A DNA stretch of 64,000 bases, from the NCBI GenBank assembly GCA_035541675.1, contig DATKMW010000063.1, forward strand, positions 1,771-65,770, given 5' to 3'. The stretch is from Anaeromyxobacter sp. GTDB lineage: Bacteria; Myxococcota; Myxococcia; Myxococcales; Anaeromyxobacteraceae. The notes beneath the pieces are model-generated. The model worked only from the letters and a program-made list of their open reading frames with translations, made no database searches and was not told the origin of the DNA. The position numbers were made by a program, and so were the translations under genes. Positions 8,559 through 13,920 of the stretch are shown here, in pieces (the stretch's first letter is position 1; the number at the start of each line of letters is the position of its first letter).

Positions 8559-9935
8559 ATGCCCAAGAACCTGCTCCTCGCGGACGATTCGATCACCATC
8601 CAGAAGGTCGTGGGCATCACTTTCGCCAGCGAGGACTACCAGGTCGTCGCGGTGGACAACGGCGAGGACGCGGTGGCCAGGGCGCGCGAGCTCAAGCCCG
8701 ATGTGATCCTGGCCGACGTGGTCATGCCCAAGAAGAACGGGTACGAGCTGTGCGAGGCGGTGAAGGCCGACCCCGGCCTGGCCGGAATCCCGGTCCTGCT
8801 CCTGTCCGGCACCTTCGAGGCCTTCGACGAAGGGCGCGCCCAGGCAGCCGGCGCCGATGGCCACATCGCCAAGCCGTTCGAGAGCCAAGCCCTCATCAAC
8901 AAGGTGAAGGAGCTGGTCGAGGGTAAGGGCGCCGCTGCGCCGGCTCGCTCCGCGGCCGCCCCCGCCTCGCCCGCGGCGCGGCCCCCCTCGCCCGTGGCCC
9001 GGCCTGCCACGGCCCCGGCTCCCCGGCCCGCGCCGGCCCCTGCCGCCGGCCGTCCGATCGGGCCCGCCGTGCCTCCCGGGGCGCGTCCCCCCGGCCCGGG
9101 CCTCCCCCCCGGCGCACGTCCGCCGGGCCCCGGGATGTCCCCCGGAGCGCGGCCGGTCGGCGCGCCCAGGCCGGGCCCGTTCCCGCCTGGTGCGGCGGCG
9201 CGACCTCCCGCGGCGGGCATGCCCCCCGGCGCTCGTCCGCCCGCACCGGGGGTGCCTCCGGGCGCCGGCCCGCGCCCCGGGGCGCCGATGCCTCCTTCGG
9301 GCGCTCCGCGCCCGCTCGCGGTGGGCATGCCCCCCGGGCCGCGCCCCGGCCCCGGCCCGCTCCAGCCCGGCGCGCGCCCGCTCCCCGGTGCCGCCTCGCC
9401 GCGCCCGGCCGCCCCGCCGGCCCGGCCGGCCGCGCCGCAGCCGGCCGTGCGCCCGGCCGCCCGCAAGGACCCCTTCGGCCTCGGGGACGCGATCTCGGCG
9501 CCGCCCCCGGCCGGCGCACGGCCCGTGCCGGCCCCGCCCCCGCCGGCGCCCGCCGCGCCGAGCCTGGAGCTGCCCGAGGTCCCGAGCCTCGAGGTGAGCC
9601 TGGAGGAGGAGGTCCCGGCCACGCCGTCCGCGGCCAAGCCGGCCGCCGCCCCGGCGCCTGCCCCGGCCGCCCCTCCGCAGGCAGCTCTCGAGCTCCCCGA
9701 TGCCGGCGAGCTGCCCGAGCTGGCGCCGATGCACGAGTTCGTGCCGCCGGCCGAGTCGACCGGCCACAAGCCCGAGCCGAGGGCGGGCGACGGCGGCGAC
9801 GCCCTGCTGCGCGAGGCGCTGTCCAAGGCCTCCCGCGAGGTCATCGAGCGGGTGGTATGGGAGGTCGTGCCCCAGCTCGCCGAGACCATCATCCGCGAGA
9901 ACCTCGATCGCCTCGTACGGGAGCGGCAGAAGTAG
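8559..9935 (+). CDS. romR: RomR-like polarity response regulator
   Basis: N-terminal receiver (LLADDS, ILADVVMP, IAKPF); long Pro-rich linker; C-terminal LREALSKASREVIERVVWEVVPQLAETIIRENLDRL matches the RomR C-domain as I recall it; adjacent to valS. Confidence 0.85.
   Translation: MPKNLLLADDSITIQKVVGITFASEDYQVVAVDNGEDAVARARELKPDVILADVVMPKKNGYELCEAVKADPGLAGIPVLLLSGTFEAFDEGRAQAAGADGHIAKPFESQALINKVKELVEGKGAAAPARSAAAPASPAARPPSPVARPATAPAPRPAPAPAAGRPIGPAVPPGARPPGPGLPPGARPPGPGMSPGARPVGAPRPGPFPPGAAARPPAAGMPPGARPPAPGVPPGAGPRPGAPMPPSGAPRPLAVGMPPGPRPGPGPLQPGARPLPGAASPRPAAPPARPAAPQPAVRPAARKDPFGLGDAISAPPPAGARPVPAPPPPAPAAPSLELPEVPSLEVSLEEEVPATPSAAKPAAAPAPAPAAPPQAALELPDAGELPELAPMHEFVPPAESTGHKPEPRAGDGGDALLREALSKASREVIERVVWEVVPQLAETIIRENLDRLVRERQK
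9070..9400 (+). repeat. Degenerate PPGARPP(G/A)PG coding repeats in the RomR linker
   Basis: VPPGARPPGPGLPPGARPPGPGMSPGARP...MPPGARPPAPGVPPG. Confidence 0.7.
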
Positions 9936-10017: not shown

Positions 10018-10052
10018 GACCTACTCGGAACCCCACGTTGGAGAGACGAACA

Positions 10053-13000
10053 GTGAACGACGAAAACCGCACCGCGCTCGCCAAGGGCTACGCGCATCGA
10101 GAGGTGGAGGCGCGCTGGTATGCGTTCTGGAGGGCGCGCGGCTACTTCCACGGCGACGAGCGCGACCAGACCCGGCCGCCGTTCTCCATCGTGCTGCCCC
10201 CGCCCAACGTGACCGGCTCGCTGCACCTCGGCCACGCCCTCACCGCCACCCTCCAGGACGTCCTGATCCGCTGGAAGCGGATGAGCGGCTTCAACACGCT
10301 CTGGCTCCCCGGCACCGACCACGCCGGCATCGCCACCCAGATGATCGTGGAGAAGGAGCTGCAGCGGACCGAGCACAAGAGCCGGCACGACCTGGGCCGC
10401 GAGGAGTTCCTGCGCCGGGTGTGGCAGTGGAAGGAACGCTACGGATCGCGCATCGGCGAGCAGCACCAGGCGCTGGGAGCCTCGCTCGACTGGGAGCGCG
10501 AGCGCTTCACCATGGACGAGGGGCTTTCCCGGGCGGTGCGCGAGGTCTTCGTCCGGCTCCACGAGGAGGGGCTCATCTACCGGGAGATGAAGCTCATCAA
10601 CTGGTGCCCCCGCTGCCAAACCGCCCTCTCCGACCTGGAGGTCAGCTACGAGGAGGCGCACAAGGGTGAGCTGTGGAGCTTCGCCTATCCGCTGGCCGAC
10701 GGCTCCGGGGAGATCGTGGTGGCCACCACCCGGCCGGAGACGATGCTGGGCGACACCGCGGTGGCAGTGCACCCCGAGGACGAGCGCTACCGGGCGCTCC
10801 TCGGGAGGAGCGTCCGGCACCCGCTGGTCGACCGGACCCTCCCCATCATCGGCGATGCCATCCTGGTCGACCCGGCCTTCGGCACCGGCGCCGTCAAGGT
10901 CACGCCGGCCCACGACTTCAACGACTTCGAGGTGGGCAAGCGCCACGGGCTGGGGATGATCACGGTCGTCGGCCCGGACGGGAGCATGACCGCCGAGGCC
11001 GGACCGGTGGCCGGCCTGGACCGGTTCGCCGCGCGCAAGGAGGTGAAGCGCCTCCTGTCCGAGCGGGGGCTGGACCGCGGGTCGCAGCCGCACACCCTGC
11101 CCCTGGGCCGGTGCCAGCGCTGCGAGACGGTGCTCGAGCCGCTCCTCTCCAACCAGTGGTTCGTGCGCATCGAGCCGCTGGCCAGGCCGGCCATCCAGGC
11201 GGTGGAGGAGGGGAAGACCCGGTTCATCCCGGAGCAGTGGACCAACACCTACATGTCCTGGATGCGGAACATCCACGACTGGTGCATCAGCCGCCAGCTC
11301 TGGTGGGGCCACCAGATCCCGGCCTGGTACTGCGCCGACGGCCACGTGACGGTGGCGCGCCAGGCCCCGGAGCAGTGCGGCACCTGCGGGAAGGGCGGCC
11401 TGCGCCAGGACGAGGACGTGCTCGACACCTGGTTCTCCTCGGGCCTGTGGCCCTTCTCGACCATGGGCTGGCCCGACGAGACCGCCACGCTGCGCACCTT
11501 CTACCCGACCGCGGTCATGGAGACCGGGCACGACATCATCTTCTTCTGGGTGGCCCGGATGATGATGATGGGCATCCACTTCATGGGCGAGGTGCCCTTC
11601 CGGACGGTGTACCTGCACCCCATGGTCCGGGACGAGAAGGGCCAGAAGATGTCCAAGACCAAGGGGAACGTCATCGATCCCCTGGTCATCAGCGAGCAGT
11701 ATGGCGCCGACGCCCTGCGCTTCACCCTGGCCGCCCTGACCGCCCAGGGGCGGGACATCAAGCTGGCCAAGGAGCGGATCGAGGGGTACCGGGCTTTCGC
11801 CAACAAGCTCTGGAACGCGAGCCGGTTCGCCCTCATGAACCTGGCCGGGTACGAGGAGGGAGGGGGAGAGCTGGCGGGCCTCGATCTCTCCCCGGCCGAT
11901 CGCTGGATCCTGGCCCGCCTGCAGCGGGCCACCAACGAGGTGGTGCAGGCGCTGGAGGCGTTCCGGTTCAACGACGCGGCCAGCACGCTCTACCAGTTCG
12001 TCTGGCACGAGCTCTGCGATTGGTACATCGAGCTGGCCAAGGAGGCGCTCTCCGGGGACCACGCCGGGCGGCGCCGGGCCGCCCAGGCGGTGCTGGTCCG
12101 CTGCCTGTCGACCTCGTACCGGCTCCTTCACCCGTTCATGCCCTTCATCACCGAGGAGCTCTGGCACGTGCTCCGCGACGAGGTGAAGGCCTGGGCCTGG
12201 CCGGACTCCGCGCTGGCCGCCTCGTACCCCCAGAAGGGTACCGTGGACGAGGACGCGGAGCGGACCTTCGGGCCGGTCATCGGCGTCGTCGACGCGATCC
12301 GCAATGTCCGCGGGGAGATGAACGTCCCGCCCAAGGCCGAGCCCAGGGTCGTCATCGCCGTCCCCGAGCGGCAGGCACTCTCGACAGTCCGGGGGGAGGC
12401 GGCGCGCATCGCCCTGCTCGCCCGGGCCAGGGTGGAGGTGGTCGAAGGCCCCACCGCCCCGGCCGCCCCCCAGACCGCGGTCGCGGTCGGCCCCGGCTTC
12501 GAGCTCCGGCTGTACCTGGCGGGAGTCCTGGACCTCGCGGCCGAGATCGCACGGGTGGAGAAGGAGTTGACCCGGCTCGACCAGGACCTCTCCGGGATCG
12601 AGGGCAAGCTGGCGAACCCGTCCTTCGTCCAGAAGGCGCCCGCCGAGGTGGTGGAGAAGGACCGGGCCCGCGCCGGCGAGCTGCGCGAAAAAAGAGGAAA
12701 GCTCGAGGCCCATCGTGCGATGCTCTCCGGCACCGAGGCGAACACCGCCAGGAGGGACACCATGGAGAACCAGATTCCGCCCATGCCCGTCGCGGAGATG
12801 TCCGCCGCCGAGCCGGCCAAGGTGGAGCCGGCCCCGGCCCCGGTCGCTCCCGTCGTCGAGCCCGCGCCGGCACCTGCTCAACCCGAAGTGAACGCTGCGC
12901 CCCCGGCCCCCAAGAAGAAGGCGGCCAAGAAGGCCAAGAAGCCGGCCCGGAAGGCCAAGAAGGCCACGCGGAAGGCCGCGCCCCGCAAGGCGGCGAAGAA

Positions 13001-13073
13001 GGCGAAGAAGCCGGTCCGCAAGCCGGTCCGGAAGGCCAAGAAGGCCCGCAAGGCCGCCCGGCGGCGGAGGTAG
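10053..13073 (+). CDS. valS: Valine--tRNA ligase with a C-terminal Pro/Ala linker and Lys/Arg-rich tail
   Basis: PPPNVTGSLHLGH (HIGH), PGTDHAGIATQ, WCISRQLWWGH, DTWFSS, KMSKT, C-terminal coiled coil. GTG 10053 has SD ggaga (TTG 10038 is an alternative). Confidence 0.97.
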   Translation: MNDENRTALAKGYAHREVEARWYAFWRARGYFHGDERDQTRPPFSIVLPPPNVTGSLHLGHALTATLQDVLIRWKRMSGFNTLWLPGTDHAGIATQMIVEKELQRTEHKSRHDLGREEFLRRVWQWKERYGSRIGEQHQALGASLDWERERFTMDEGLSRAVREVFVRLHEEGLIYREMKLINWCPRCQTALSDLEVSYEEAHKGELWSFAYPLADGSGEIVVATTRPETMLGDTAVAVHPEDERYRALLGRSVRHPLVDRTLPIIGDAILVDPAFGTGAVKVTPAHDFNDFEVGKRHGLGMITVVGPDGSMTAEAGPVAGLDRFAARKEVKRLLSERGLDRGSQPHTLPLGRCQRCETVLEPLLSNQWFVRIEPLARPAIQAVEEGKTRFIPEQWTNTYMSWMRNIHDWCISRQLWWGHQIPAWYCADGHVTVARQAPEQCGTCGKGGLRQDEDVLDTWFSSGLWPFSTMGWPDETATLRTFYPTAVMETGHDIIFFWVARMMMMGIHFMGEVPFRTVYLHPMVRDEKGQKMSKTKGNVIDPLVISEQYGADALRFTLAALTAQGRDIKLAKERIEGYRAFANKLWNASRFALMNLAGYEEGGGELAGLDLSPADRWILARLQRATNEVVQALEAFRFNDAASTLYQFVWHELCDWYIELAKEALSGDHAGRRRAAQAVLVRCLSTSYRLLHPFMPFITEELWHVLRDEVKAWAWPDSALAASYPQKGTVDEDAERTFGPVIGVVDAIRNVRGEMNVPPKAEPRVVIAVPERQALSTVRGEAARIALLARARVEVVEGPTAPAAPQTAVAVGPGFELRLYLAGVLDLAAEIARVEKELTRLDQDLSGIEGKLANPSFVQKAPAEVVEKDRARAGELREKRGKLEAHRAMLSGTEANTARRDTMENQIPPMPVAEMSAAEPAKVEPAPAPVAPVVEPAPAPAQPEVNAAPPAPKKKAAKKAKKPARKAKKATRKAAPRKAAKKAKKPVRKPVRKAKKARKAARRRR
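12762..13073 (+). CDS. Possible separately initiated 103-aa histone-H1-like protein nested in frame in valS
   Basis: AGGAGG (12750-12755) lies 6 nt before in-frame ATG 12762. The last 53 aa contain 21 K, 10 R and no acidic residue. Confidence 0.4.
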   Translation: MENQIPPMPVAEMSAAEPAKVEPAPAPVAPVVEPAPAPAQPEVNAAPPAPKKKAAKKAKKPARKAKKATRKAAPRKAAKKAKKPVRKPVRKAKKARKAARRRR

Positions 13074-13083
13074 CCCGGGGCCG

Positions 13084-13920
13084 ATGCGGCAGCTGTCCGC
13101 CCAGGTCGAGAGGCTCGTCGAGCTGGCCCTCGAGGAGGACCTCTCGCTGGGGGACGCCACCAGCGAGGCGACCCTCGAGCCGGCGGCGTCGGGGGAGGGC
13201 GTGTTCCTGGCCAAGGAGGACCTGGTGATCGCCGGCACGGCGGTGGCGGCCCGGGTCTTCGAGAGGCTGGGCGCGTCCTGCCGGTTCGAGCGCCGCGATG
13301 GGGAAGGCGTCCGGGCTGGCGAGGTGGTGGGCACGGCCCGGGGGCCGGTCCAGGCCCTCCTCGCTGCCGAGCGCACGGCGCTCAACTTCCTCCAGCGCCT
13401 CTCCGGGGTGGCCACCGCCACCCGCCGCTGCGTGGAGGCCCTGGCGAGGGGCGGCGCGACGACGCGGTTGCTCGACACCCGCAAGACCACTCCCGGCTTC
13501 CGCCTGCTGGAGAAGGCGGCCGTGCGCGCCGGCGGGGGGACCAACCACCGGCTCTCGCTGGGCGACGGCATCCTCATCAAGGACAACCACGTGGCGGCCA
13601 GCGGCGGAGTGGCCGAGGCGGTGCGGCGGGCGCGGGCCAGGGCCGGCGCGCTGCTCCGGATCGAGGTGGAGGTGGTGGACCTGGCCGGCCTCGATGCGGC
13701 CATCGCCGCCGGCGCCGATCTGGTCCTGCTCGACAACATGGACGATGCCGGCATCGCCGAGGCCGTGGCCCGGGCCTCCGGCCGGGTGCGCCTCGAGGCC
13801 AGCGGGAACATGACCCTGGAGCGGCTGCCGCGGGTGGCCGCCACCGGCGTCGACTTCGTGTCCATGGGGGCCATCACCCACAGTGCCAGGGCGGTGGACC
13901 TGTCGTTCGAGCTGCGGTGA
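13084..13920 (+). CDS. nadC: Nicotinate-nucleotide diphosphorylase (carboxylating)
   Basis: ERTALNFLQRLSGVAT, DTRKTTPG, HRLSLGDGILIKDNH, IEVEV, LLDNM, EASGN. Confidence 0.95.
   Translation: MRQLSAQVERLVELALEEDLSLGDATSEATLEPAASGEGVFLAKEDLVIAGTAVAARVFERLGASCRFERRDGEGVRAGEVVGTARGPVQALLAAERTALNFLQRLSGVATATRRCVEALARGGATTRLLDTRKTTPGFRLLEKAAVRAGGGTNHRLSLGDGILIKDNHVAASGGVAEAVRRARARAGALLRIEVEVVDLAGLDAAIAAGADLVLLDNMDDAGIAEAVARASGRVRLEASGNMTLERLPRVAATGVDFVSMGAITHSARAVDLSFELR

Follow-up and report, generated by a model that had tools for sequence, protein, structure and literature searches.

Lysine-rich, disordered or helix-prone terminal extensions are appended to complete aminoacyl-tRNA synthetases in eukaryotes, among them the N-terminal extensions of yeast and human valyl-tRNA synthetase (ValRS) and those of yeast GlnRS, mammalian LysRS and class IIb AspRS. 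The appended domain of yeast ValRS is reportedly the subject of work dating from 2008. Extensions of this kind on eukaryotic synthetases bind RNA nonspecifically and raise the affinity for tRNA (PMC2992532, PMC6213541). Here we describe a valS gene in a 64,000-nucleotide stretch of Anaeromyxobacter sp. DNA (contig DATKMW010000063.1, positions 1,771 to 65,770; hereafter the window, whose numbering is used for its coordinates), the product of which likewise carries a Lys-rich extension that is absent from typical bacterial enzymes. We consider it about 60% probable that this gene is a fusion with a valS-linked polycation gene, that it gives two products, and that the added basic module serves as a nonspecific tRNA/RNA-binding arm.

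The module, by which we mean the spacer and tail that follow the ValRS coiled coil, differs from the eukaryotic appended domains in being bacterial, in being C-terminal rather than N-terminal and in having no sequence homology to them, and its binding is putative; it also consists of AKK/ARK repeats behind a Pro/Ala spacer, has an internal start of its own and exists in separate-gene forms. A parallel of another kind is offered by Trbp111, the MetRS C-terminal domain, Arc1p and EMAPII, which are also free or synthetase-fused depending on the lineage, with a presumed action either in cis or in trans. Those proteins, however, are folded OB-folds, whereas the module is a low-complexity polycation with no Pfam match. 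In composition and repeat style the module resembles Chlamydia Hc2, AlgP, PhaF, Anaeromyxobacter CarD, mycobacterial HupB and the PAKKA repeats of Ku, and AlgP and PhaF moreover combine a helical N-terminal part with a Lys-rich tail, as do the modules of some relatives (PMC9239181, PMC3553676, PMC2919716). What sets it apart from these bacterial proteins resembling histone H1 (H1-like) is its association with a synthetase gene, by fusion or by coupling.

In-frame nested genes, such as those of phage endolysins, IF2 alpha/beta, ClpB and CheA, are similar in having a Shine–Dalgarno (SD) sequence and a start codon within a linker and a stop codon in common with the longer product. By analogy, the closest precedents for dual expression would be the in-frame endolysin genes that encode two polypeptides and the internal starts mapped in Escherichia coli by ribosome profiling (Ribo-seq) with retapamulin (PMC9430671; bioRxiv 10.1101/520783). 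The present case differs from these in that the two products are predicted from sequence, that the short one is a disordered polycation, and that its origin appears to be the fusion of neighbouring genes.

RESULTS

The valS product ends in a Lys-rich tail

The ValRS core, comprising the class Ia catalytic and editing domains, the anticodon-binding domain and the terminal coiled coil, is encoded at 10053–12725 (+ strand) as delimited by Pfam and NCBIfam NF011492. Matches to PF00133 (3e-152), PF08264 (1e-41) and PF10458 (9e-20) place it among the class Ia ValRS enzymes, and the last of these, the Val_tRNA-synt_C coiled coil at residues 832–896, is also the last Pfam domain of the protein. Residue numbers refer to the 1011-aa reading of the valS open reading frame (ORF) at 10038–13073 (+), counted from TTG 10038; the true start is probably GTG 10053, behind GGAGAG at 10040–10045, although the TTG is also in frame, and the public gene call of 1006 aa agrees with the GTG. 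Past the coiled coil the protein continues for a further 115 aa (residues 897–1011), made up of a short linker, a 50-aa spacer and a 53-aa tail. The spacer (residues 909–958; 12762–12911, +) is rich in Pro, Ala, Glu and Val and has a net charge of −5. The initial annotation, made from the sequence of the window, had described the last 53 residues as containing 21 Lys and 10 Arg without any Asp or Glu, behind a Pro/Ala/Glu spacer, and translation of 12912–13070 bears this out: the tail consists of 21 Lys, 10 Arg, 15 Ala, 4 Pro, 2 Val and 1 Thr, with a net charge of +31. All 21 of its Lys codons are AAG, and the stop codon TAG at 13071–13073 completes the feature (12912–13073, +).

The Lys/(Lys+Arg) ratio is 0.69 in the extension, compared with 0.27 in the ValRS core and ∼0.155 in the genome (2385 long ORFs of high GC content at third codon positions, GC3, in a genome of 73% GC), and the tail has the highest lysine density of the 5.0-Mb assembly (17 Lys in 40 aa in a six-frame scan, in which 3 ORFs passed the filter). 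Together these values place the tail far from chance. From the coiled coil to the TAG at 13071 the valS frame is open throughout, without a stop codon, so that valS is not an over-extended ORF. The DNA from 12500 to 13200 is fully covered, without differences, by a contig from one wetland metagenome run, and the tail with the DNA downstream of it is reproduced, again without differences, by contigs of two further wetland runs; these runs may include the source sample. The lysine-rich ValRS tail is real.

Lysine-rich segments are also found elsewhere in this genome (G000), namely in the C-terminal tail of a CarD homologue, the N-terminal regions of RpoD and topoisomerase I and the Lys/Ala-rich C-terminal tail of a TPR protein (C121:16155-17228, C34:1518-4079, C152:6817-9348 and C104:3335-4726; L038, L035, L040 and L032). 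Pyruvate phosphate dikinase (C49:7-2928, minus strand; L033) has a short Lys/Ala/Pro-rich tail at its end. No other aminoacyl-tRNA synthetase of this genome passed the lysine filter.

A putative internal start lies at the junction

Between the coiled coil and the spacer lies an SD sequence, AGGAGG, at 12750–12755 (+), followed after 6 nt by an ATG at 12762–12764 (+; Met909). Both are in frame with valS, the junction being read Arg-Arg-Asp-Thr-Met, and from this ATG a free protein of 103 aa may be translated, ending at the valS stop codon. The Arg-Arg pair is encoded by AGG AGG in all 19 same-genus loci (38 of 38 Arg codons), whereas in valS cores within the genus AGG accounts for only 43 of the 1490 Arg codons (2.9%). 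Around the invariant AGG AGG and ATG the residues of the linker vary, and the peptide MENQ that follows the ATG is conserved. In other families the SD motif stands in other codon phases, as in tcAGGAGGgcacATG, read S-G-G-H-M, in ccGGAGG..ATG, read P-E-x, and in gtGGAGG..ATG, read V-E-D. This indicates that the constraint acts on the nucleotides and not on the amino acids.

An SD core of at least 5 nt is present 3–11 nt upstream of 45 of the 51 junction ATGs (fused loci with an in-frame ATG at most 31 codons from the coiled coil), compared with 2 of 623 internal ATGs of the valS cores. The 60 nt surrounding the internal ATG are among the least structured of each valS (mean percentile 4%; 12% for the copy in the window), the codons that follow it are A-rich, and the internal ribosome-binding site (RBS) is nearer to the consensus than GGAGAG-N7-GTG, that of valS itself. 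RNAalifold detected no conserved structure at the junction (−3 kcal/mol, no covariation), and the 16S rRNA 3′ end, with which the SD sequence would be compared, is not present in the assembly. A conserved SD sequence at proper spacing, an in-frame start and a stop codon in common with the long ORF, the features by which nested genes are recognized, are thus all found for the site at 12750–12764. Since the fused gene has kept an RBS and an ATG of its own, we infer two products; the internal start is probably functional, in which case the gene makes both a tailed ValRS and a free 103-aa basic protein.

Separate and fused forms of the module

In two relatives (L064 and L077) valS ends in TGA and is followed by ccTGGAGGaacgATG (GGAGG-N4-ATG) and a separate ORF of 131–136 aa in the same frame, starting with MSERTPEEM; in their sister genus (L063/L068) the same protein is fused behind valS. 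In L093 the valS stop overlaps an ATG (ATGA) behind GGAGGAGG, from which a 181-aa protein of Pro/Ala sequence and AKK repeats begins, and in L026, of the same genus, the module is fused. An ATGA overlap is found once more in L102, which belongs to a sister order of the same class: here valS overlaps a 148-aa Lys-rich ORF, and nadC comes next. The Lys-rich ORF is annotated as hypothetical, and a protein-set search returned only compositional matches to it.

These arrangements make it very probable that the extension is the product of a small, fast-evolving polycation gene that sits between valS and nadC in this order of Myxococcota. Here, as in the majority of the order, no stop codon separates this gene from valS, and the two are fused in frame. 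In the ancestral state the module was likely a small gene of its own between valS and nadC, with coupled translation. To fuse the two, a short insertion or deletion within the overlap would be enough, as would a single substitution in an in-frame TGA. The existence of split and lost states means that neither fusion nor the module is essential, and lost ATGs mean the same for the free form.

At one further locus (L019:4398-5423) ValRS ends at the coiled coil and a separate 342-aa ORF with TTKRAAAG repeats lies ∼250 nt downstream; its homology to the module is uncertain. A search for a free paralogue of the module in the genome of the window found none, and in a set of 5.8 billion proteins the shorter proteins recovered as candidate stand-alone homologues were C-terminal fragments of ValRS only.

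Distribution of the extension

Each of the 19 same-genus valS loci in which the region is included has the extension, which measures 95–177 aa from the junction Met and is free in sequence and constant in composition. Across the order, 71 of 88 assessable valS loci, in 8 of 9 families, have an extension of at least 40 aa that ends in Lys/Ala/Pro-rich sequence; at 11 loci the protein stops at the coiled coil and nadC is the next gene, and two others appear to be broken. That ValRS typically ends at the coiled coil in bacteria, as the initial annotation had it, agrees with what is seen in the other orders of the Myxococcota: all 36 assessable loci, which represent 23 families, encode a protein that ends 0–12 aa past the coiled coil, and none is fused. 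The comparison of ValRS C-termini across the phylum thus finds the tail conserved in kind among relatives, which answers the refuting condition set in the initial annotation. By this distribution, the extension is an old, order-wide trait with secondary losses.

The net charge of the module is +29.5 (standard deviation 3.6) over lengths of 95–260 aa. Such near-constancy of charge, combined with variable length and sequence, argues for selection on charge and not on sequence.

In the families with large genomes (L062, L069, L073, L060, L065, L096, L099) a conserved, TPR-like block of ∼60 aa with the motif DHHDLGVAYMSMGLVDDAMREF precedes the AKK repeats, and it is weakly similar to a TPR part of SgmX (NF052243, E ∼1e-6). 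In the single-contig genome G080 (L072) the reading frame of the valS extension changes at a stretch of 10 C, beyond which the module is encoded in a different frame; the cause is either an error of sequencing or a homopolymer that truly varies.

Structure and family of the module

AlphaFold2 models the spacer as coil (predicted local distance difference test score, pLDDT, 54–61) and the tail as helix-prone (pLDDT 70–94), behind a confidently predicted coiled coil. Structurally the module is what is found in the Lys-rich appended domains, a terminal Lys-rich extension on a complete synthetase. A Pfam search of residues 897–1011 gave no match, and neither a tRNA_bind OB-fold nor any other Pfam domain was found on these residues or on the modules of relatives.

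The initial annotation had called the tail histone-H1-like. This holds for its composition, but membership of an H1-like family does not follow: the module of the window matches neither Pfam HC2 (PF07382) nor NCBIfam NF038053, and those of relatives stay below the cut-offs (14–31 bits against 40 for PF07382; 14–23 bits against 80 for NF038053). The likeness to H1-like families is one of composition only. Modules also match, weakly, the basic tail region (∼190–293) of NF010381 (PRK13808.1), a curated adenylate kinase model of 335 positions, which suggests that lysine-tailed adenylate kinases exist in some lineage.

The long form of ValRS is already present in public databases and has an NCBI hidden Markov model (HMM) of its own, under the plain name of valine--tRNA ligase. 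The ValRS of the window passes the cut-off of this model (NF011492 / PRK14900.1, long form) with 1803.3 bits against 1783, and residues 7–1007 align with model positions 2–1016 of 1044, that is, through the extension.

Neighbouring features

The gene nadC (quinolinate phosphoribosyltransferase; Pfam QRPTase_N and QRPTase_C) lies 10 nt 3′ of valS at 13084–13920 (+). The order valS-[module]-nadC is conserved, nadC standing in relatives directly after valS or after the module. The stop codon of the module is TAG in 32 of 36 loci inspected, with the nadC start 3–40 nt further on; in the window the final module codons, CGG AGG, provide a GGAGG 13 nt upstream of the nadC ATG. Immediately before valS and in the same orientation lies the gene of a 458-aa response-regulator receiver protein, at 8559–9935. 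No sigma-70 promoter or terminator scored above shuffled controls in the valS 3′ end.

Upstream of the internal SD sequence, at 12687–12724 (+), the last turn of the coiled coil is encoded by a conserved block of rare, A/T-ending codons (GAA AAA AGA GGA AAG ... CAT CGT GCG ATG CT), in which GC3 falls from ∼0.95 to 0.56–0.67 and third-position entropy is low across the genus. Part of this block is also conserved in L026, from another family. It may possibly serve the internal start as a standby or expression signal; neither a conserved RNA structure nor a promoter match that would account for it was found. A canonical −1 slippery site in its conserved A-run was ruled out, as the frame is GAA AAA AGA.

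DISCUSSION

Our results point to a valS gene that has taken up a neighbouring polycation gene and probably still expresses it separately as well. As to function, our tentative preference, to which we would give slightly less than even odds, is that the module binds polyanions without sequence specificity and so captures tRNA or RNA for ValRS, by analogy with the eukaryotic appended domains. Such an arm is favoured by the persistent coupling to valS, the repeated fusion and the attachment beside the coiled coil. The coiled coil of ValRS reportedly contacts the tRNA elbow in the Thermus thermophilus complex. Tethered by a flexible spacer of ∼50 aa, the +31 Lys/Ala tail would act in cis beside this coiled coil, and the free 103-aa module would possibly capture tRNA or RNA in trans. 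A wider proposal, which we regard as rather unlikely, is that the Myxococcales possess a bacterial counterpart of a eukaryote-style synthetase cofactor, namely a disordered polycation coupled to valS that occurs as a separate subunit, a tethered tail or both according to lineage (here as both, from one gene with a conserved internal start), with the free and fused forms cooperating in tRNA capture or in the placement of ValRS on a polyanionic scaffold.

Several observations weigh against a two-product gene with a tRNA-binding arm. The module has been lost outright in at least 11 genomes, and the relatives compared are not independent samples. In-frame AGGAGG-N-ATG is not rare in this genome, with 48 cases in long ORFs, so that the argument for an internal start rests on conservation and not on occurrence. 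In 20 fused loci the ATG is missing (GTG in some); a GGAGG in such fusions carries little weight, as Glu/Gly-rich linkers produce it by chance. No RNA run was found to contain the stretch, the matching contigs being metagenomic DNA, and the free product is itself deduced from sequence. Polycations also bind DNA, polyphosphate and membranes, and neither the net charge of the ValRS core nor the charge of the coiled coil tracks the presence of the module.

One alternative, of rather low probability, is that the fusion is the sole functional product and that the internal SD sequence and ATG are a fossil gene start or a pause site. The fused loci that lack the ATG imply that a tethered tail alone is viable and can suffice, and ribosomes elongating through valS could occlude internal initiation. 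A fossil, however, should decay at synonymous sites, yet the rare AGG is retained at every junction Arg codon of the genus and the motif persists across codon phases; in addition, the junction is kept unstructured and the split forms start exactly at this site.

DNA or nucleoid binding is the main rival to a tRNA/RNA arm, and we judge it no better placed than the fossil start. The module would be an H1-like DNA binder for which the position beside valS is historical, the fusions being near-neutral accidents eased by the ATGA overlap. There is precedent in CarD of Myxococcus xanthus, whose DNA-binding HMGA-type domain can be replaced by the H1-like domain of the Anaeromyxobacter protein (PMC2919716), and a tailed CarD homologue is present in this genome; the H1-like composition, the sub-threshold Hc2 and NF038053 matches of relatives and the losses of the module fit as well. 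It accounts poorly, however, for a linkage to valS that holds throughout the order and reaches into a sister order, with translational coupling, and for a fused state that is dominant and persists at family depth, including lineages without a free start; nor does this genome hold a free paralogue elsewhere.

It is improbable that the tail is directed to another polyanion or to condensation, bringing ValRS to a condensate, to ribosomes or to granules of polyphosphate. Such granules are where the KPAA-repeat tail of AlgP is found (PMC9239181), and charge-driven assemblies typically combine a near-constant charge with freedom of sequence. Nothing in our data links the module to polyphosphate or ribosomes, however, and the specific linkage to valS would be left unexplained.

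Tandem AGG codons are said to be shift-prone in E. coli. The AGG AGG of the genus might accordingly be taken for a site of stalling or +1 frameshifting, and so for the source of a ValRS without its tail, and the +1 frame in the window does end ahead of the Lys-rich tail; we consider this very unlikely, since other families keep the SD sequence where no AGG codon is read, with the ATG at SD spacing, and the split forms show the motif to be a start signal. An artefact of assembly, frameshift or over-extension, to which the frameshifted tails of some draft assemblies (L023 and L027 of the same genus, L050, L094, L072) might point, is negligible given the continuous frame, the identical contigs of three runs and the same architecture in single-contig genomes of the genus, in A. 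dehalogenans 2CP-1 and in a curated NCBI HMM of 1044 positions.

Returning to a fused, valS-coupled polycation gene with two products, this goes beyond the basic tail noted in the initial annotation: the extension is probably a formerly separate gene, as the internal SD sequence and ATG and the split forms indicate, and a free small protein is probably made too. A full-text literature search found no description of the ValRS tail, of the internal start or of split and fused states, including in Myxococcus and Anaeromyxobacter, and no ribosome profiling or N-terminal proteomics for myxobacteria were found in the literature.

Lys-rich, tRNA-binding appended domains have been treated as a eukaryotic innovation; here, an order of bacteria has a Lys-rich extension on its ValRS. 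The plain annotation 'valine--tRNA ligase' would hide a probable second product. The bacterial genes listed as encoding two proteins by means of an in-frame internal start are few, and this gene joins them as a candidate with deep conservation. The lineage preserves the separate coupled gene, the fusion with its own start, the fusion without a start, and loss. Because these stages are preserved, the gain of an appended domain by fusion of a neighbouring gene is testable in the culturable Myxococcus xanthus and Anaeromyxobacter dehalogenans.

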